In this document: positions 2,903 to 51,208 of the stretch, piece after piece | Position numbering within the stretch: position 1 is the first letter of the stretch | Layout: the number at the start of each line of letters is the position of its first letter | DNA from: Deltaproteobacteria bacterium | GTDB taxonomy: Bacteria > Desulfobacterota > Syntrophia > Syntrophales > JAAYKM01 | NCBI GenBank assembly: GCA_012522415.1 | Contig: JAAYKM010000123.1 | Location: 1,833-65,832 of the forward strand | Length of the DNA stretch: 64,000 bases | Direction of reading: 5' to 3' | Made by a program: the position numbers and the translations under genes | Notes under the pieces: generated by a model | Seen by the model: the letters and a program-made list of their open reading frames with translations, nothing else | Told to the model about the DNA's origin: nothing | The model's database searches: none

Positions 2903-3661
2903 ATGGATAAAGACCTCATCAAACAGTGCCGATTTTTTCTGAAAGACACGATTCGAAAGATGATCGACTTTTCCAGGACGGATCAGTATCTCGGTGTTCC
3001 GCCGCCTCCTATTCAAAAACCTTTTTCCCAAGATGCGAAAAGAATTGTCCTGCCCGGCATGAAAGCATGGCAGGACATCGGAAAGGCCGATTTCAAGGCC
3101 ATAATTCTCAACAGGGAAAGTCATCGGTCTTATCTGGAGGAGGCTCTTACCCTTGGAGAATTGGCTTTTCTCCTTTGGGCAAGCCAGGGGATAAAGGAGA
3201 GACTGGATGAGGGACATGCCCTCCGCACGGTTCCTTCCGCAGGATGCCGCCACAGCCTCGAGACTTATCTTTGCGTATTGAATATCGATGGATTGGAACG
3301 CGGGATTTACCGTTATCTTCCTCTTGAGCATCAATTGCTCCTCCTGTACACGGACCAGGATCTGGATGAAAAAATTTTCGAAGCAACTTTCAACCAGACT
3401 TATCCGGCGGTGGCCGCCGTTACCTTGATATGGACCACCATTCCATACAGGATGGAGTGGCGCTATGGTCCGGCTTCAGCTAAAGTTATCGCCATTGAGG
3501 CGGGTCATGCCTGTCAGAATCTTTATTTGGCCTGTGAAGCAATTGGGGCGGGTGCATGTGCCATGGCCGCTTATGACCAACAGGCCATGGATCACCTTCT
3601 TCATATCGACGGTGAAGATGAATTCACCCTGTATCTGGCATCGGTGGGACGAAAATTGTAG
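2903..3661 (+). CDS. SagB-type dehydrogenase / nitroreductase-family protein
   Basis: 252 aa with a nitroreductase-fold signature: RESHRSY near the N-terminus, LSFLLWASQG, PSAGCRHSLETY, and a C-terminal AIEAGHACQNLYLACEAIGAGAC. Confidence 0.7.
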   Translation: MDKDLIKQCRFFLKDTIRKMIDFSRTDQYLGVPPPPIQKPFSQDAKRIVLPGMKAWQDIGKADFKAIILNRESHRSYLEEALTLGELAFLLWASQGIKERLDEGHALRTVPSAGCRHSLETYLCVLNIDGLERGIYRYLPLEHQLLLLYTDQDLDEKIFEATFNQTYPAVAAVTLIWTTIPYRMEWRYGPASAKVIAIEAGHACQNLYLACEAIGAGACAMAAYDQQAMDHLLHIDGEDEFTLYLASVGRKL

Positions 3662-14410: not shown

Positions 14411-15157
14411 ATGAAAATCATATTTCACGAAGGCTTCTACCAGGTTTATGCTTCTGATCCAGCCGCGGCTCCGGGCAGAATGGAGGCAATCGTTTCCGTG
14501 ATCGGAGAAAAACATGAATTTCTTCAGGCGGTTCCCGCTGAAGAAGCGGACATCCTCGCCGTGCATTCTGATTTACATGCGCAAAGGGTTCGACATGAAG
14601 GGGTCTACGAAATTGCCGCGCTGGCCGCAGGCGCTTCCATCGAGGCGGCAAAAATCGGAATGAAGGAACCGGCCTTTGCTCTGGTAAGGCCTCCCGGCCA
14701 CCACGCCTCGGAGGATAGTGCCTGGGGATTTTGTTATTTCAACAATATGGCCATTGCGTTAACTCACCTGATCAGGGCCGGTTTGATTCAGAAAGCCTCC
14801 GTCCTTGACTTCGATTTGCACTACGGTGACGGTACGGTCAACATACTGGGCACTTTGGATCAAATCGCCATTTTTAACCCTTCGGCATCGGATCGTTCTC
14901 ATTATCTGCGCAGCGTAGAGGATTTTCTTGCAGAACAGAAAAGCGATATCATCGGCATATCCGCCGGGTTCGATAATCATGAAGCGGACTGGGGCGGCCT
15001 CCTTTTGACGGAAGATTACCGGGAAATGGGCAGAATGGTCAGAATGGCCGCCAATGCCATGGACCTTGGTTATTTCGCCGTTCTGGAAGGTGGGTACAAT
15101 CACCGTGTGTTGGGTGAAAATGTTGCGGCCCTGCTGGAAGGCATGGGAGGCGAATGA
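14411..15157 (+). CDS. Compact histone-deacetylase/acetoin-utilisation (HDAC/AcuC) family protein
   Basis: About 248 aa from the ATG at 14411 (RBS AGGGAG), with RPPGHHA, FDLHYGDGT, SAGFDNHEADWGG and LEGGY. It is shorter than typical 300-370 aa family members. Confidence 0.8.
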   Translation: MKIIFHEGFYQVYASDPAAAPGRMEAIVSVIGEKHEFLQAVPAEEADILAVHSDLHAQRVRHEGVYEIAALAAGASIEAAKIGMKEPAFALVRPPGHHASEDSAWGFCYFNNMAIALTHLIRAGLIQKASVLDFDLHYGDGTVNILGTLDQIAIFNPSASDRSHYLRSVEDFLAEQKSDIIGISAGFDNHEADWGGLLLTEDYREMGRMVRMAANAMDLGYFAVLEGGYNHRVLGENVAALLEGMGGE

Positions 15158-15343
15158 GGGTCTTGCCGGAGTAAAGGAAATGATGAAATCCACGTTGGAC
15201 CGATGTATCGTTAGCCTGAATAGGAGATCGGAGAATTGGGAAGCCGTTGTCATAACCGTTCCCAGGACAGCCACGTTTTCATGGTTCTGGCATGATCCCG
15301 TTACGTGTCATACGCTGATGCAAGCCCCTGATTTCCTTTAAAT

Positions 15344-15367
15344 AGCATTACTTTTAAAAGTATTGCT
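15344..15367. promoter_or_regulatory. 24-bp near-perfect inverted repeat abutting the -35 of the pan promoter (candidate operator)
   Basis: AGCATTACTTTT / AAAAGTATTGCT, with 11 of 12 positions complementary (mismatch T15348/T15363). The last base is the first T of TTGACA. Confidence 0.45.
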
Positions 15368-15395
15368 TGACAAAGAAATATCTGTCTGTTAGAAG
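15367..15395 (+). promoter_or_regulatory. Sigma70-type promoter for the panCD leader
   Basis: TTGACA (15367-15372), 17-nt spacer, TAGAAG (15390-15395). It shares the 10-mer CTTGACAAAG with the aro promoter. Confidence 0.45.
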
Positions 15396-15517
15396 CCCTA
15401 CGCCGCTTGGATCCGCTTCAGGACTGAGACGGAAAGGTTGGAAAGATTGTTTATGTGGGTATCCTTACCTCCCGTCTCGCGACGCGGAGGTTTTTTTTTG
15501 CGCAAAGGAGAATTGCA
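15396..15517 (+). ncRNA. Structured 5' leader of panCD (candidate pan-motif-type cis-regulator) containing an intrinsic terminator
   Basis: The terminator at 15468-15499 is CCTCC-CGTC / loop TCGC / GACG-(C)-GGAGG followed by T9. The upstream GAGACGG (15426-15432) is complementary to CCGTCTC (15472-15478), which overlaps the terminator's 5' arm and loop. There are six GGA triplets in about 110 nt. I could not align it to the pan consensus. Confidence 0.45.
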
Positions 15518-16396
15518 TTGGAAATATTCAATTCTGTTACGGATATGCAAAACAAGGTAAATCTCCTCAGGCAGCAGGGACAAAGGATCGCTTTTGTTCC
15601 GACTATGGGGTATTTTCACGAAGGACATCTGGACCTGATGAGGGAAGGTCGAAAGCGGGGCGATTACCTGGTCGTCAGCATTTATGTCAACCCGACACAG
15701 TTTGCTCCAACGGAAGATCTGGATGAATATCCACGGAATTTTGAACGGGACTGTTCAATGGCCGAACAGGTCGGAGTCGATGCGGTTTTTTTCCCCGATG
15801 ACTCGGGAATGTACCCCCCTCATTATCAGACGTATGTCGATGTGGAAGGGGTTACGAAGAATTTGTGTGGGGCCTCGCGTGCCGGTCATTTTCGTGGTGT
15901 GACGACGGTTTGCACAAAGCTTTTCAACATCGTCAAGCCCCATGTGACTATTTTCGGCAAGAAGGATTTTCAGCAGCTTATTACGATAAAGACCATGATT
16001 CGGGACTTGAACATGGATATAGAGGTAATAGGCATAGCGACAACACGTGAACCTGACGGTTTGGCCATGAGTTCCCGTAATGCTTACCTGAATGAGGAAG
16101 AACGAAAATCGGCTCAGTGTCTCAGCCGTTCCCTGATGATCGCAAAACGGCTGTACGAATCGGGTGAAACCGATGCCGGTCAAATTTTGAATCAAGTACG
16201 CAAGTATATAAAATCACATCCACATGTTGAAATTGATTACATAAAGGTCAGTGATGTCGATACGGTTGAAGAGGTATGGTCCGTGGGCCCCGACACTTTT
16301 ATCGCCATGGCGATCAGGGTCGGTAAAACGAGATTGATCGATAATTATGTTTTTGGAGAGGATCTGAAGGTTCCATCTCCAGAAAATTATCGATGA
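15518..16396 (+). CDS. panC: Pantoate--beta-alanine ligase
   Basis: PTMGYFHEGH and GKKDFQQ motifs. The TTG at 15518 is preceded by AAGGAG (7-nt spacing), and the N-terminal length then matches PanC. The track start at 15455 would translate through the terminator hairpin. Confidence 0.88.
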   Translation: MEIFNSVTDMQNKVNLLRQQGQRIAFVPTMGYFHEGHLDLMREGRKRGDYLVVSIYVNPTQFAPTEDLDEYPRNFERDCSMAEQVGVDAVFFPDDSGMYPPHYQTYVDVEGVTKNLCGASRAGHFRGVTTVCTKLFNIVKPHVTIFGKKDFQQLITIKTMIRDLNMDIEVIGIATTREPDGLAMSSRNAYLNEEERKSAQCLSRSLMIAKRLYESGETDAGQILNQVRKYIKSHPHVEIDYIKVSDVDTVEEVWSVGPDTFIAMAIRVGKTRLIDNYVFGEDLKVPSPENYR

Positions 16397-16423: not shown

Positions 16424-16783
16424 ATGCAACGGTTCATGATGAAATCAAAGCTGCATAGGGCTACGGTGACGGATGCAGACCTGCATTATGAGGGTAGTAT
16501 TTCTATTGATGAGGATCTCCTCGAAGCATCCGACATCCTTCCTTATGAGAAGGTTGCCATTTACAATGTCACCAACGGAGAGCGTTTTACGACCTATGCC
16601 ATTACGGGCAAGGCGGGTTCCGGGGTTATCTGTCTCAATGGTGCGGCGGCCAGAAAAGTATCGAAGGGTGATATCATCATCATCGCGTCGTATTGCATGG
16701 TCGAGGACAGCGAAGCCAAGGGTTGGAAGCCGACCTGTGTGCTTCTGGACGGTGGAAATAAAATAAAAAAGATTACCCCCTGA
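16424..16783 (+). CDS. panD: Aspartate 1-decarboxylase proenzyme
   Basis: 119 aa starting [29 protein letters not shown], with the self-cleavage G-S site. Confidence 0.92.
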
Positions 16784-16907: not shown

Positions 16908-17552
16908 TTGAAAAAAAAGCTTAAAAGTGTTTTTCTGACGGGTCTTGCTGTGACCATCCCTATCGGCCTGACCCTTTACATTCTCTTCTTCATCATCGAC
17001 GTCATGGACGGCCTGCTGAGGATCGTGCCGGCCCGGTATGACCCGAATGTTCTGCTGGGGTTTCGTATACCGGGTTTGGGTGTTGTCTTTACGGTGCTGC
17101 TCATTCTTCTCGCTGGACTCATCACAAAAAGCTATGTGGGCAACAGGGTGCTGCGCAAAGGCGAGGGCCTGTTCAGCAGAATTCCCATTGTCCGCAGCAT
17201 TTATTTGGCGATCAAGCAAATATTCAACAGTCTTTTTTTGGGGAAGAGCCGCAGTTTCAGGAAGGTCGTTCTGCTTGAGTATCCACGGAAGGGATTGCAC
17301 AGTATCGGTTTCATCACCGGCTCCGTGGAAGAAACCTTTCCACAGATTGCCGATGATAATCAGAAAAAAATAGGGGTTTTTATACCACTGGCCGTTACCC
17401 CCTATACAGGAGCCTTTGTCATTGTTCGGGAAGATGAGGTGGTTGAAGTAGGGATGACCGTCGAGGAAGCGTTTACCCTCATCATATCGGCGGGAATCGT
17501 TTCCCCCGAAAGCGGGAATTCAAGGTACGAACGAGCCATATCTGGGAATTAA
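16908..17552 (+). CDS. DUF502-family membrane protein
   Basis: 214 aa with a TTG start, two N-terminal TM helices and the conserved IPIVRSIY, YPRKG and GFIT pattern of DUF502. Confidence 0.65.
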   Translation: MKKKLKSVFLTGLAVTIPIGLTLYILFFIIDVMDGLLRIVPARYDPNVLLGFRIPGLGVVFTVLLILLAGLITKSYVGNRVLRKGEGLFSRIPIVRSIYLAIKQIFNSLFLGKSRSFRKVVLLEYPRKGLHSIGFITGSVEETFPQIADDNQKKIGVFIPLAVTPYTGAFVIVREDEVVEVGMTVEEAFTLIISAGIVSPESGNSRYERAISGN

Positions 17553-17579
17553 TCAGAAAAGGAAAAGGGGACTCTTTAA

Positions 17580-18758
17580 ATGAACATCACATCAGAAAGC
17601 GTAAAAATCGGGCATCCGGATATCGTTTGCGACATGATTGCCTCACACATCATCGCGGAGATCATTGAAGAAGAACATCGGGCGGGCATGACCATAGACA
17701 CGATGCCCCATTGCGGTCTTGAGGTTTTTTTGGGGAAAGGCCTGTGTATCGTCGGAGGCGAGGTTGCCACCCGCGTCTATGTCGATATCGAGAAAATCGT
17801 TCGCAATACGGTGCTCTCTATCGGGTATGACGATTACCTTCTGGGACTCAATGGCAATTCCATGGGTGTCCTGAACACCATCATCCCACAATCACCGGAT
17901 ATCAACAAGGGTACAAGGGCGCATCTCGGAAAATACAAAGAAATCGGTGCCGGCGACCAGGGTATCATCTATGGTTTTGCATGCAACGAAACTTCAGATT
18001 TTTTGCCTTTGCCGTATGTACTCGTCAACAAGATGATGCGCTGCTTTGAAACCTGTGGGAATCCTGTTTTTGCGCCGGATGGGAAGGGTCAGGTTACGGT
18101 CCAGTACAATGAGCGGGGAATGCCTGAGCGGGTCTCGACCGTGTTGATGTCCAATGCGATAGACTATCGCTGTGTCAAGGAGGGAGAGAAAAGCGGGATT
18201 GAACCCATGGCAAAAGAAATGGCCATGGGTTGCGTCGCTGATTGGGTGGATGACGGCACGGAATTCCTGTTCAATCCTACGGGAGAATGGCAGGCCATCA
18301 ATTCCTGCAGTGCGGCAGATTCGGGTGTTACGGGACGGAAGTTGGTGGTCCAGCTCTACGGCGGTTTTCCGGGAGCTCAGTTGGGAGGCGGCGCCATAGT
18401 CAACAAGTCGCCGGAAAAGGTGGACTGTTCCGCAACCTTCGGTGCGAGACATGTGGCGAAAAACATTGTCGCGGCAGGTCTGGCCGAAAAATGTTCGGTA
18501 CAACTGGCTTACGCCATCGGGATTGCCCGGCCCATATCGGTCTATGTGAATACCTTCGGTACAGGGATACTCTCCGACAACAATTTGGTTCTCTTGGTGA
18601 AGGAGTATTTCGACCTCTCCCCCCGGGGAATGATCGAAAAGTTCAATTTATTGAATGGTGATATTTACCGAAAAATCCCACGGAGTCTTTTCCTAGGTGA
18701 CTACCCCTGGGAACAGCTTGATATGGTCGACGCGCTTAAAAAAGCTGCGGGTATTTAA
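17580..18758 (+). CDS. metK: S-adenosylmethionine synthetase (divergent MetK)
   Basis: 392 aa with SESVKIGHPD, GAGDQGIIYGFA, PDGKGQVTV, DSGVTGRKLVV.LYGG and GGGA..NKSPEKVD.S..FGARHVAKNIVAAGLA. Several normally invariant flanking residues differ. Confidence 0.8.
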   Translation: MNITSESVKIGHPDIVCDMIASHIIAEIIEEEHRAGMTIDTMPHCGLEVFLGKGLCIVGGEVATRVYVDIEKIVRNTVLSIGYDDYLLGLNGNSMGVLNTIIPQSPDINKGTRAHLGKYKEIGAGDQGIIYGFACNETSDFLPLPYVLVNKMMRCFETCGNPVFAPDGKGQVTVQYNERGMPERVSTVLMSNAIDYRCVKEGEKSGIEPMAKEMAMGCVADWVDDGTEFLFNPTGEWQAINSCSAADSGVTGRKLVVQLYGGFPGAQLGGGAIVNKSPEKVDCSATFGARHVAKNIVAAGLAEKCSVQLAYAIGIARPISVYVNTFGTGILSDNNLVLLVKEYFDLSPRGMIEKFNLLNGDIYRKIPRSLFLGDYPWEQLDMVDALKKAAGI

Positions 18759-18827
18759 TCGACCCGATTTTTCTGATTATTCATCGTTTATGGGTTGGTT
18801 TGAAACTGCCTTGTCGGGAGGTTTGAA

Positions 18828-20252
18828 ATGAATTTCCTCAAGATTGATCTGAGTTTACCTCATAAAATTGCGGATATAAATTTGGCCGAATGGGGAAGAA
18901 AGGAAATTGCCCTGTCTGAAAAGGAAATGCCGGGTTTGGTGGCGATTCGGGAAAAATACGGTCCCCTGGAACCCCTGAAGGGTCTGAAGGTTACGGGCAG
19001 CCTGCACATGACTATTCAGACGGCGTTTTTAATCGAAACCCTTAAACTTTTGGGAGCCGACATACGTTGGGCATCCTGTAATATCTATTCCACCCAGGAC
19101 CATGCCGCCGCGGCTATTGCGGCATCAGGATCGGCAGCGGTATTCGCCTGGAAGGGCGAGACATTGGAGGAGTACTGGTGGTGTACGGAACAGGCCCTCA
19201 CCTGGCCGGACGGTTCCGGGCCGGACCTGATTGTCGATGACGGCGGTGATGCGACGATGTTTGTACATCTTGGCGTCAAGGTGGAAAGGGATCCCGAACT
19301 ACTTGAAGTAACACATGAAGAAAAGGAGATGGCCGTCGTTATGGAACGCCTGAGGCGTAGCCGTAAGATGAATCCTGAAAAATGGCAGAAGATTGCGGCG
19401 GATATCCGGGGTGTCTCCGAGGAAACAACCACGGGGGTGCACCGTCTCTATCAGATGGCAGCCAAAGGGGAATTGCTCTTTCCTGCAATCAACGTCAACG
19501 ATTCCGTTACGAAATCCAAGTTCGATAACCTCTACGGGTGCAGGGAATCTCTGGCCGATGGGATCAAAAGGGCGACGGACATCATGATTGCCGGCAAAAT
19601 GATCGTGATTTGCGGATATGGGGACGTGGGCAAAGGATGCGCCCATTCCATGAAGAACCTGGGTGCACGGGTCATAGTGACGGAAATCGATCCAATCTGC
19701 GCCCTCCAGGCGGCCATGGAGGGTTATCCGGTCAAGAGACTGGAAGACGTCGTCAGGGAAGGAGACATCTTTGTTACGGCGACCGGGTGCTGTGATGTCG
19801 TTCGGGGAGAGCATATGGAGCAGATGAAGGATGAAGCGATCGTCTGCAACATCGGTCATTTCGATAGTGAAATCGCCATGTCTTATCTGGAAAGTAATCC
19901 CAAATGCCGTAAGGAGAACATCAAACCCCAGGTGGATCGTTGGTACCTTGAATCGGGACGGTCCATTTTGATTCTGGCTGAAGGGCGGCTGGTCAATCTC
20001 GGCTGTGCGACCGGTCATCCGAGTTTTGTGATGAGCAACAGTTTCACCAATCAATGCCTGGCCCAGATAGACCTGGTCAAAAACGATTACAAACCGGGCG
20101 TTTACCGTTTAAGCAAGTTGCTGGATGAGGAGGTGGCCAGACTTCATCTGGAGCGGGTTGGTGCCGAACTGACCCGACTTGATCAGAAACAGGCAGATTA
20201 TATCGGCGTACCTGTCGATGGACCCTATAAACCGGATTACTATCGTTATTGA
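18828..20252 (+). CDS. ahcY: Adenosylhomocysteinase
   Basis: 474 aa with [39 protein letters not shown] and a C-terminal YRY. Confidence 0.92.
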
Positions 20253-24842: not shown

Positions 24843-24892
24843 GTTAGGAATACATACAATCATTGAGAGATCATTTAAGGAGGGACATGGGG

Positions 24893-26809
24893 ATGGCAAA
24901 AATAATCGGTATTGATCTGGGAACAACAAATTCGTGTGTCGCCGTCATGGAGAGCGGCGATCCCGTCGTGATAGCCAATCAGGAGGGCACTCGAACTACG
25001 CCGTCCACAGTGGCCTTCACTGACAGTGGAGAGAGGCTTGCGGGGCAGGTTGCTAAACGTCAGGCCGTAACCAATTCGGAAAATACGGTTTACGCCATCA
25101 AAAGGATGATCGGCAGAAAGTACACCTCAAAAGAGGTTCAGCATGATATCCCCATTACACCCTATAAGATTACGGAAGCTCCCAACGGTGATGCCCAGGT
25201 AACGGTACGGGGACGAAACTACAGCCCGGCGGAAATTTCATCCATGATATTGACGAAGATGAGACAGACCGCTGAAGACTATCTGGGAGAGAAGGTGCAG
25301 GATGTCGTGGTGACGGTGCCCGCCTACTTCAACGATTCCCAGCGCCAGGCGACCAAGGATGCCGGCAAGATTGCGGGACTCAACGTATTGAGAATCATCA
25401 ATGAACCGACGGCGGCGGCCCTTGCTTACGGACTGGACAAGAAAAAGGACGAAAAAATAGCCGTTTTTGACCTGGGAGGCGGTACCTTCGATATTTCAAT
25501 TCTGGAAATAGGGGACGGGGTTTTTGAGGTCAAGTCCACCAACGGGGATACGCATCTTGGTGGAGAGGATTTTGACCAGGTTTTGATCGAATACCTGGCA
25601 ACGGAATTCAAGAAGGATCAGGGAATTGATATACGTGGTGATAAAATGGCTCTCCAAAGGTTGAAGGAGGCGGCCGAAAAGGCAAAGATGGAATTATCCA
25701 CGGCAATGGAAACGGATATCAATCTGCCGTTCATCACGGCGGATGCGTCGGGTCCCAAGCATATGAACATCAAGCTGACCCGGGCAAAACTCGAGGCGTT
25801 GGTGGAAAATCTGATAGGGAAACTCGAGCCGCCCTGTCAGACTGCCCTCAAGGACGCAAACCTGACGCCGAAAGACATCGACGAAGTGATCCTTGTCGGC
25901 GGGATGACGAGAATGCCCCGAGTACAGCAGAAAGTGAAAGAAATCTTCGGAAAGGAACCGAATAAAGGCGTGAATCCGGATGAAGTCGTCGCGATCGGTG
26001 CGGCGATTCAGGGAGGGGTACTGAAAGGTGATGTGAAAGATGTCCTCCTGTTGGATGTCACCCCCCTTTCTCTGGGCATTGAAACCTTGGGCGGCGTCAT
26101 GACGAAGCTGATTGAAAAGAACACCTCGATTCCGACCAGAAAGAGTCAGGTCTTCTCAACGGCGGCGGACAATCAGCCAGCAGTCAGTATCCATGTCCTC
26201 CAGGGTGAGCGGTCCATGGCTCAGGACAACCGCACCCTCGGGCGATTTGAACTTGTCGGCATTCCTCCGGCTCCACGCGGAATGCCCCAAATTGAAGTGA
26301 CCTTTGATATTGATGCAAACGGAATTGTCCACGTTTCTGCAAAGGATCTCGGTACGGGGAAGGAACAAAGCATCAAAATCACCGCTTCGAGCGGCCTGAA
26401 TGAGACGGAAATCGACAAGCTCGTGAAGGAAGCGGAGGCTCATGCCGAAGAAGACAAGAAACGTAAAGAATTAATCGAAGCGAGGAACCAAGCGGATTCT
26501 TTCCTTTATGGTGTCGAAAAGAATGTCAAGGAATATGGCGATAAAATTGATTCAACAGAAAAGGCAAAAATAGAAGACGCCATCGCCAAACTCAAAAAGG
26601 CGATTGAAGGCGAAGATCTGCAGTCAATTCAGTCGGCCCAGGAGGAATTGACGAATGCCTCCCACAAATTGGCCGAGGCCATGTACGCCAAAACGGCCCA
26701 ACAGGAAGGAGACGTCGGTCAGGGGAGCGGGACTACGGACGGCGCTCAGCATGAAGGCGGCCGCAAGGAGGACGATGTCGTCGACGCCGACTTTGAAGAT
26801 GTGAAGTAA
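24893..26809 (+). CDS. dnaK: Molecular chaperone DnaK (Hsp70)
   Basis: [14 protein letters not shown] from the ATG at 24893 (AAGGAGG 9 nt upstream), with DLGGGTFD and an acidic C-terminus. Confidence 0.95.
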
Positions 26810-32154: not shown

Positions 32155-32228
32155 TGGGGGATCGTTCAATGGTAGGACAACGGACTCTGACTCCGTGAAT
32201 AGGGGTTCGAATCCCTTTCCCCCAGCCA
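32155..32228 (+). tRNA. tRNA-Gln (anticodon CTG)
   Basis: Cloverleaf by hand. Acceptor TGGGGGA/TCCCCCA, anticodon stem ACGGA/TCCGT with loop CTCTGAC, T-loop GGTTCGAATCC, and an encoded G-CCA end. It resembles E. coli tRNA-Gln. Confidence 0.9.
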
Positions 32229-43963: not shown

Positions 43964-44040
43964 GGCGGTGTAGCTCAGCTGGTTAGAGCATACGGCTCAT
44001 ATCCGTAGTGTCCGGGGTTCAATTCCCTGCACCGCCACCA
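43964..44040 (+). tRNA. tRNA with CAT anticodon (elongator Met, or Ile2 if lysidine-modified)
   Basis: Acceptor GGCGGTG/CACCGCC with a G1-C72 pair, so not an initiator. D-arm TAGCTCAGCTGGTTAGAGCA, anticodon loop CTCATAT, encoded ACCA end. Confidence 0.88.
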
Positions 44041-44978: not shown

Positions 44979-45055
44979 TGGCGGGGCCGATGGGATTTGA
45001 ACCCACGCCCTCCGGCGTGACAGGCCGGCGTTATAACCAGCTTAACTACGACCCC
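44979..45055 (-). tRNA. tRNA-Asp (anticodon GTC)
   Basis: The reverse complement folds as acceptor GGGGTCG/CGGCCCC, anticodon stem CCGGC/GCCGG with loop CTGTCAC, T-arm GTGGG-TTCAAAT-CCCAT, and a G-CCA end. Confidence 0.88.
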
Positions 45056-45092: not shown

Positions 45093-45168
45093 TGGTGGGC
45101 GGAACAGGACTTGAACCTGTGACATCCACGGTGTAAGCGTGGCGCTCTCCCAGCTGAGCTACCCGCCC
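45093..45168 (-). tRNA. tRNA-Val (anticodon TAC)
   Basis: The reverse complement is GGGCGGGTAGCTCAGCTGGGAGAGCG..., with anticodon stem CCACG/CGTGG, loop CTTACAC, T-loop GGTTCAAGTCC, and an ACCA end. Confidence 0.9.
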
Positions 45169-50897: not shown

Positions 50898-50984
50898 TGG
50901 TGCGAGAGAGGGGACTTGAACCCCTATCCGTTTTCACGGGCTGGATCCTAAGTCCAGTGCGTCTGCCAGTTTCGCCACTCTCGC
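50898..50984 (-). tRNA. tRNA-Leu (anticodon TAG)
   Basis: The reverse complement is GCGAGAGTGGCGAAACTGGCAGACGC..., with anticodon stem CTGGA/TCCAG, loop CTTAGGA, a long variable arm, T-loop GGTTCAAGTCC, and an ACCA end. Confidence 0.9.
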
Positions 50985-51131: not shown

Positions 51132-51208
51132 TGGTCGGGGCGAGTGGATTTGAACCACCGACCCTCTGAACCCCATTCAGATACGCTACCAAGCTGCGCT
51201 ACGCCCCG
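51132..51208 (-). tRNA. tRNA-Pro (anticodon GGG)
   Basis: The reverse complement is CGGGGCGTAGCGCAGCTTGGTAGCG..., with anticodon stem TCTGA/TCAGA, loop ATGGGGT, T-loop GGTTCAAATCC, and an ACCA end. Confidence 0.9.

Follow-up and report, generated by a model that had tools for sequence, protein, structure and literature searches.

A single-hairpin pan RNA as the probable sensor of a transcription attenuator upstream of panCD in an uncultured Syntrophales bacterium

The DNA analysed here (the window) comprises 64,000 nucleotides (nt) of contig JAAYKM010000123.1 from a Deltaproteobacteria bacterium of the order Syntrophales (GenBank assembly GCA_012522415.1, positions 1,833 to 65,832 of the forward strand). 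It carries the pantothenate (vitamin B5) genes panC and panD, and all features described below for this locus lie on its plus strand. A sequence-only reading had proposed that the panCD leader contains mutually exclusive terminator and antiterminator helices and, possibly, a pan-motif RNA; both proposals were borne out. Positions 15403-15436 are, by sequence and predicted structure, a single-hairpin pan RNA (Rfam RF01749) of the form typical of delta-proteobacteria. The leader, about 118 nt long, likely acts as an OFF-type transcription attenuator in which this hairpin serves as the sensor and is locked by an effector. We assign this reading a probability of about 0.72.

The hairpin occupies 15403-15432. 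Its 5' arm (CCGCUUGG-A-UCC, 15403-15414) and 3' arm (GGA-CUGAG-A-CGG, 15421-15432) enclose a loop at 15415-15420, and each arm contains one bulged adenosine (A15411 and A15429). Two bulged A residues are the defining feature of the pan family (Weinberg et al. 2010, PMC2864571). Those of the window align to both bulge positions of RF01749, and the pairs predicted by RNAfold are the same as in the Rfam alignment. The hairpin is followed by a purine-rich 3' tail (AAAGGU, 15433-15438), which is unpaired in the hairpin state, is conserved as A(A)GG and is a candidate toehold for the antiterminator. The second hairpin of the RF01749 model matches 15403-15436 almost base for base: the window reads CCGCUUGGAUCC...GGACUGAGACGGAAAG where the consensus is CuGCCUgGAUCc...gGACcGGGACaGAaGG, which covers both the conserved primary sequence and the tail. 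The hairpin ends 85 nt 5' of the panC start, and panD is the next gene after panC. This agrees with the setting of the family, which occupies 5' untranslated regions of panB, panC or aspartate decarboxylase operons.

A search with the Rfam pan model, which had been suggested as a check, returned a match, although one below the curated threshold. With an E-value threshold, cmscan of 15150-15650 placed RF01749 at 15339-15436 with 29.5 bits (E = 0.0038). This is below the Rfam gathering score of 36.2 and is the first point that speaks against our assignment; at the gathering threshold, the whole window yielded six transfer RNAs (tRNAs) only, and pan was not reported. The score is low because the Rfam model describes two hairpins, the first of which is forced onto the promoter. 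It thus reflects the two-hairpin model and is no argument against the window sequence. We rejected the "first hairpin" at 15339-15365, which includes three non-canonical pairs and overlaps a palindrome and the -35 hexamer. The same artefact is found in the Syntrophus aciditrophicus row of the 2010 alignment, where the same promoter sequence (UCUUGACA...UGGUAGAG) is placed under the first hairpin of the model. The palindrome (15333-15378, 26-nt arms, 77% complementary, centre at about 15355) overlaps the -35 and, judged by eye, is not shared by the closest relative (L001). With the Rfam model, relatives reach 28.2-42.6 bits; of eight, three lie above the gathering threshold.

The S. aciditrophicus row (NC_007759.1/1255322-1255406) is the orthologue of the window leader. 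Its hairpin is almost identical, with a different loop and one extra A in the tail, and the annotated 2010 Stockholm file contains the same terminator and panC start. With the pan motif as published (PMC2864571), the window shares both bulged A residues, the letters GCUUGGAUCC ... GGACUGAGACGGAAGG, the site before panC and the terminator. It differs in having one hairpin where the Rfam model has a tandem pair, and in its host, an uncultured Syntrophales bacterium whose best PanC match is 84%. A further difference is that the 2010 text annotates terminators only and contains no antiterminator pairing. The tandem arrangement is common but not required, since the authors of the family call the pan RNAs of delta-proteobacteria typically single hairpins (PMC2864571). 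The panCD leader element is hence an additional, ordinary member of the family described in 2010.

Relatives were collected by a PanC protein scan with one genome per species, which gave 80 loci. The closer ones all belong to Syntrophales, Syntrophaceae or Smithella (best 84%), and loci of the Geobacter type follow at 52-57%. We built a covariance model of the single hairpin from 83 sequences, including 18 that were typed from the 2010 alignment. It finds exactly one pan match in 73 of the 80 panC loci, always on the coding strand and upstream of panC or, in loci where panB comes first, upstream of panB. In the 64-kilobase (kb) window, it finds one pan hairpin, at 15403-15436, and no second copy. 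The next-best match, at 26382-26412 (14.9 bits, E = 0.09), falls within the coding sequence of a dnaK-like gene (24863-26809) and was judged to be chance.

The hairpin itself is strongly conserved. In 66 Syntrophales leaders, 97.8% of the alignment cells in the hairpin stem pair. Among the 83 hairpins, which come from three phyla, the value is 94.9%, and 9 of the 12 pairs vary on both sides, which none of 500 shuffles reached. Bulged A15411 and A15429 are invariant or nearly so in this set, and 19 alignment columns are invariant although the PanC proteins are only 53-84% identical.

The terminator lies at 15468-15499 and consists of a stem-loop (15468-15490, RNAfold -14.3 kcal/mol) and a run of nine U (15491-15499). 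The stem-loop is made up of CCTCC-CGTC (15468-15476), the loop TCGC (15477-15480), GACG (15481-15484), a bulged C (15485) and GGAGG (15486-15490). The sequence-only reading had placed this terminator, its nine T, the TTG start and the 18 nt between the T run and the start correctly. It had also noticed the perfect complementarity of GAGACGG (15426-15432) to CCGTCTC (15472-15478), which can be read directly in the sequence. These segments form the core of the alternative helix, in which strand A (15425-15438, part of the hairpin 3' arm plus the tail) pairs with strand B (15467-15479, the terminator 5' arm plus loop) at a RNAduplex energy of -16.9 kcal/mol. The helix does extend into the tail as had been expected, but the proposed pairing of AAGG with CCTT (15463-15466) is less favourable by RNAduplex and RNAfold than that of AGGU (15435-15438) with ACCU (15467-15470). 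The AGGU:ACCU pairs are present in the minimum free energy (MFE) structure of the truncated transcript.

The two strands are separated by a spacer (15439-15466) of variable sequence and length, in which our alignment (A1) has no conserved columns. Strand B appears as conserved columns amid the free spacer: C68, C69, T70, C73, G74 and T75 (numbered in the first row) are conserved to at least 90% across the relatives. A terminator 5' arm that is nearly invariant beside a freely varying spacer is most simply explained by its pairing with the invariant hairpin strand.

We parsed 71 leaders for promoter and terminator. An intrinsic terminator follows the hairpin in each of them, 30-60 nt away, with -9 to -23 kcal/mol and T4-T10. 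Its end lies 2-27 nt upstream of the panC start in most Syntrophales. The duplex between the hairpin 3' strand and the terminator 5' arm averages -16.2 kcal/mol, compared with about -10 kcal/mol for shuffled partners. As a null set, we took 45 unrelated terminator-like hairpins of equal stem strength from the same sequences, and these gave -7.0 +/- 2.5 kcal/mol (Mann-Whitney p = 8e-19). The lowest null duplex (-13.4 kcal/mol) is the reverse complement of the pan hairpin of its own locus (L047), and the best genuinely unrelated one reaches -11.6 kcal/mol. Complementarity is likewise kept in 28 independent metagenome leaders, which lie mostly before panB and have terminators of the type GGCCUUCCGG (mean -15.2 kcal/mol). 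In a MAFFT alignment of the 66 Syntrophales leaders, 80.4% of the antiterminator cells are paired, versus 38-55% for slid partners. Folded as a whole, the window leader has an unremarkable energy (z = -0.5).

Complementarity is also kept where the register or the shape of the terminator has changed, as in L042, L070, L073, L076 and L078. In several Smithella leaders, a U-A pair replaces C-G at the base of the hairpin (GACGAAAGG), and CCUUUCGUC in the terminator arm is a perfect complement. The partner of the hairpin strand is the terminator loop in L042, whereas L076 pairs as CGGGACGG:CCGUCCCG, and L070 and L078 pair as GGACCGAG:CUCGGUCC, in the loop and 3' arm. The expression platforms differ as well: terminators occur in many lineages with varied sequences and registers, and in Listeria the hairpin tail itself is the Shine-Dalgarno (SD) sequence. 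The family thus combines a conserved sensor with variable platforms of mutually exclusive structures, a pattern that riboswitches share.

These observations bear on a reading without any sensing, in which the hairpin, as a constitutive 5' stem-loop, would protect the messenger RNA (mRNA) and the terminator would be a fixed, leaky attenuator that sets low expression. Hairpins at the 5' end are known stabilisers of mRNA, the MFE structure of the full-length leader is hairpin plus terminator, and no effector has been found in 16 years in the literature searched. A stabilising hairpin needs no invariant sequence, however, yet here 19 columns are invariant, and the same sequence recurs in three phyla and only before pantothenate genes. 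Moreover, this reading gives the terminator 5' arm no reason to stay complementary to the hairpin 3' strand. We regard it as unlikely.

In an attenuator with the pan hairpin as sensor, the hairpin would form first, being the first part transcribed. The newly made terminator 5' arm would then pair with the free purine tail through the AGGU:ACCU toehold and displace the hairpin 5' arm by GAGACGG:CCGUCUC pairing. The resulting antiterminator of 7+4 base pairs (bp) has a predicted stability above that of the hairpin, so that the default would be ON, with readthrough into panC and panD. For the OFF state, an effector would lock the hairpin, notably the basal 3-bp helix under bulged A15429. The terminator 5' arm would be left free, the terminator would form, and transcription should stop at U9, 18 nt before panC.

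The predicted energies fit such a scheme. The window hairpin alone has -11.7 kcal/mol. For the transcript cut at 15480, the MFE (-21.1 kcal/mol) is the antiterminator fold; the antiterminator with the hairpin 5' arm held open has -17.6 kcal/mol and the hairpin state -16.2 kcal/mol. In the full leader, hairpin plus terminator is preferred (-31.0 kcal/mol). Averaged over the 71 loci at the decision point, the hairpin state (-19.7 kcal/mol) and the antiterminator state (-18.2 kcal/mol) are near-isoenergetic. By these computed values, the energies are those expected of a kinetic switch that is tipped by modest stabilisation of the hairpin.

Several further points weigh against the attenuator reading. 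It is built on sequence comparison and predicted folds. In just 20 of the 71 loci is the antiterminator computed to be more stable than the hairpin state; hence, the ON default is not guaranteed. Within Syntrophales, the antiterminator does not covary beyond column shuffles (228/500), and we therefore rely on the conserved complementarity, the null of unrelated terminators and the distant lineages. Own hairpin and terminator strands pair better than crossed ones (-15.9 vs -15.1 kcal/mol, 0/5000 permutations), but the gain of 0.8 kcal/mol is small and is inflated by related sequences. Two conserved segments rich in purines and pyrimidines could also yield part of the complementarity as a by-product.

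The same energies may be read with reversed logic, as an ON switch: the effector would open the hairpin or bind to the antiterminator form, and the signal would induce panCD. The hairpin state is at least as stable at the decision point in 51 of the 71 loci, and the default could be termination. On the other hand, conservation and covariation are found in the closed, bulged hairpin, which is what a partner would recognise, and in Listeria the position of the hairpin next to the SD would suit repression through its locked form. End-product repression is also the usual logic of vitamin biosynthesis operons. An ON switch is in our view improbable, slightly more so than the absence of sensing, and we retain the OFF-type attenuator.

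The predicted panCD promoter lies directly in front of the hairpin. It consists of a -35 hexamer TTGACA (15367-15372) and, after a spacer of 17 nt, a putative extended -10 (TGT-TAGAAG, 15387-15395). Judged from the distance between the -10 and the stem, transcription should start at 15400-15403. In the relatives, TTGAC(A/G) stands at a fixed distance from the hairpin. In 66 of the 71 parsed leaders, a TA comes 17-18 nt behind it, and 58 of these 66 also have TG at -15/-14. The distance from the -10 end to the first stem base is 6-9 nt in 56 of these 66 relatives and 7 nt in the window. As the promoter abuts the stem, the hairpin is predicted to form the 5' end of the leader mRNA. A simple consensus scan overlooked both promoter and terminator because the terminator contains a bulge and the -10 lacks its final T; we located both by manual parsing and RNAfold. 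Pan promoters show no conservation at positions 3-6 of the -10, and the final T is usually missing (TAGAAG, TAGGGA, TACGGG), which is unusual for sigma-70-type promoters.

The sequence-only reading had named a scenario in which the hairpin and U run merely terminate an upstream transcript and panC has a promoter of its own further downstream. The histone-deacetylase-like gene upstream is indeed on the same strand, and the terminator lies downstream of it. However, 310 nt and a conserved promoter separate the terminator from the stop codon of that gene, which is upstream of panC in none of the 80 relatives, yet all of them retain the terminator before panC. By sequence, the stretch from the U run to the panC start is too short to accommodate a promoter. 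As far as sequence can decide, this scenario is excluded, because the cassette travels with panC, a conserved promoter lies 6-9 nt before the hairpin in most loci and the T run is just 18 nt away from the start. We give it next to no weight.

That the cassette travels with panC and not with an upstream gene is evident from the sequence comparison. None of the four upstream genes of the window is found upstream of panC in any of the 80 relatives, whereas downstream of panC, the order is panD (66), DUF502 (37) and metK (36). The full order panC-panD-DUF502-metK is kept in about half of the Syntrophales relatives. Three Smithella panC leaders (L055, about 560-645; L056, about 2915-3000; L061, about 715-800) have a TTGACA/TGnTA promoter and a terminator but no pan hairpin; another sequence (…GUCCACGCAGGCCCGGACAAAACUGGAC…) is in its place, and panD is not downstream. 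In two Geobacter loci, transfer-messenger RNA genes lie about 3 kb downstream of panC (L072, 6071-6426; L080, 6543-6846).

The compact arrangement might also suggest that the promoter-hairpin-terminator unit mainly produces a trans-acting small RNA of about 100 nt, with readthrough into panCD being incidental. The unit is in fact a complete promoter-to-terminator cassette of this length, and in other bacteria, riboswitch leaders that have been terminated can function in trans. Against this, the cassette always stands directly before a pantothenate gene on the same strand, in most Syntrophales with the terminator 2-27 nt from the start. No free-standing copy was found in the 80 loci or in the 64-kb window, and the spacer, which would have to carry the seed, is unconserved. 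A small RNA as the main product is thus very improbable.

The genes that follow the hairpin outside the collected loci are equally restricted. A metagenome search returned 80 matches, of which about 30 without a 5' arm were dropped as chance and 50 were kept. Among these, 42 precede panB, panC or panD genes. The gene after the hairpin is panB (26), panC (13), panD (3) or a PanG-type Rossmann-like/DUF2520 reductase (3-4). By sequence, the pan regulon is the pantothenate branch only (panB, panC, panD and PanG-type reductases), and a pathway-specific signal is therefore indicated. In L086, L119, L125 and L137, genes for Rossmann-like plus DUF2520 oxidoreductases begin 4-105 nt after the pan hairpin. 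This oxidoreductase type is the FTT1388/PanG ketopantoate reductase family (PMC4572677). The 2010 file (PMC2864571) likewise has an open reading frame (ORF) of the DUF2520 type after the Dehalococcoides pan RNA. In L085, the first ORF encodes a SIS-domain protein and begins 236 nt after the pan hairpin plus terminator.

Two smaller features of the leader had also been pointed out. The short direct repeats are present (CCGCTT twice and GGAAAG(G/A)TT twice), but their second copies lie in the freely varying loop or spacer and look like chance. The six GGA triplets, which fall within about 110 nt and include one in the SD, are present as well and had raised the idea of CsrA-type binding sites and translational control. 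Only the three at 15409, 15421 and 15431 are at conserved positions, and these are paired within the pan stem and not exposed in a loop. The other three are in the spacer, the terminator 3' arm or the SD, where they are unconserved or generic. The leader further has a strong terminator, for which CsrA would have no need. Control by CsrA-type proteins is accordingly hardly credible. A leader peptide was considered and rejected; the sole ATG (15453) has no SD and lies inside the unconserved spacer.

The intergenic region between the histone-deacetylase-like gene (ending at 15157) and the panC start is 360 nt long. The panC gene (pantoate-beta-alanine ligase, 15518-16396; Pfam Pantoate_ligase PF02569, 6.3e-104; 52-84% identity to the 80 relatives) begins with TTG at 15518-15520, in frame with PanC. 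The ribosome binding site AAGGAG that had been noted is present and can now be placed at 15505-15510, 7 nt 5' of the TTG. The second gene of the regulated unit is panD (aspartate 1-decarboxylase, 16424-16783; PF02261, 5.9e-52). Genes for a DUF502 membrane protein, metK and S-adenosylhomocysteine hydrolase lie 3' of panD (16908-20252). The six tRNA genes of the window are at 32155-32225, 43964-44037, 44982-45055, 45096-45168, 50901-50984 and 51135-51208.

The effector would likely be either a metabolite of the pantothenate/coenzyme A (CoA) branch or, almost as probably, a protein that may be dimeric, with the small remainder left to something else. The authors of the family took the simple, mostly tandem hairpins as suggestive of a dimeric protein (PMC2864571). 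In-line probing of a Geobacter metallireducens pan RNA showed no modulation by 1 mM pantothenate, CoA or beta-alanine, which counts against the attenuator reading, and the authors warned that probing constructs may misfold (PMC2864571). We found that the published 106-nt construct ends in the terminator 5' arm and that its predicted fold (MFE -32.9 kcal/mol) lacks the pan hairpin. The negative result is thus weak evidence. The statement that no ligand is established for pan still holds in the literature searched, in which we found nothing relevant on a later pan ligand or binding protein; a 2024 paper on CoA in B. subtilis does not mention the pan RNA.

The two hairpin strands each read 5'-C-U-N-R-G-A(bulge)-3' and so form a pseudo-dyad, which, speculatively, would suit a dimer or two ligand sites. 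A tentative reading, which we hold to be somewhat less probable than its opposite, is that the single, pseudo-symmetric hairpin of 34 nt is a complete aptamer for an intermediate of the pantothenate/CoA branch, and that the negative result of 2010 was due to the competing fold of the construct. Candidate ligands would be pantoate, ketopantoate, 4'-phosphopantothenate, 4'-phosphopantetheine and dephospho-CoA.

Known systems offer parallels for both kinds of effector. PreQ1-I is a small OFF riboswitch with a terminator platform and an aptamer of about 34 nt. The pan leader resembles this type in its tiny sensor, the 3' strand doubling as antiterminator, the terminator near the start and the biosynthesis operon, but pan is a plain bulged hairpin without a pseudoknot, and three obvious ligands were negative. 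The NAD+-I (nadA motif) and guanidine-II (mini-ykkC) riboswitches are tandem small stem-loops that were once suspected of binding proteins. By analogy, the pan family, which elsewhere occurs in tandem and has conserved bulge and loop letters in a simple stem, may be comparable, although the window has a single hairpin. PyrR on pyr leaders and TRAP on trp are protein-dependent attenuators. There, as would be the case here, the bound partner stabilises an anti-antiterminator hairpin, the downstream terminator forms and the end product represses. The pan hairpin sequence is unrelated to these, and its pseudo-dyad (CUNRG-A on both strands) is merely suggestive of a dimer. No candidate RNA-binding protein for control of the PyrR/TRAP type was found, and the conserved neighbours DUF502 and metK are not RNA-binding families.

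For a specialist, the panCD leader is not surprising and adds no new kind of element. The pan motif has nevertheless been an orphan since 2010, and it is carried by many Firmicutes, Chloroflexi and delta-proteobacteria without an established regulator of pantothenate synthesis. To this family, the analysis contributes an explicit three-part attenuator model, in which a sensor hairpin, a toehold tail with the antiterminator, and a terminator are linked by complementarity that is conserved across lineages. It also contributes a pan regulon restricted to one pathway and the caveat that the RNA of the published ligand test is predicted to misfold. Since the family is still an orphan, the panCD locus should be of some use as a minimal test system with a single hairpin. 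If the aptamer reading were true, the minimal system for demonstrating it would be the Syntrophales leader, which combines a single hairpin with a clean toehold and a terminator.

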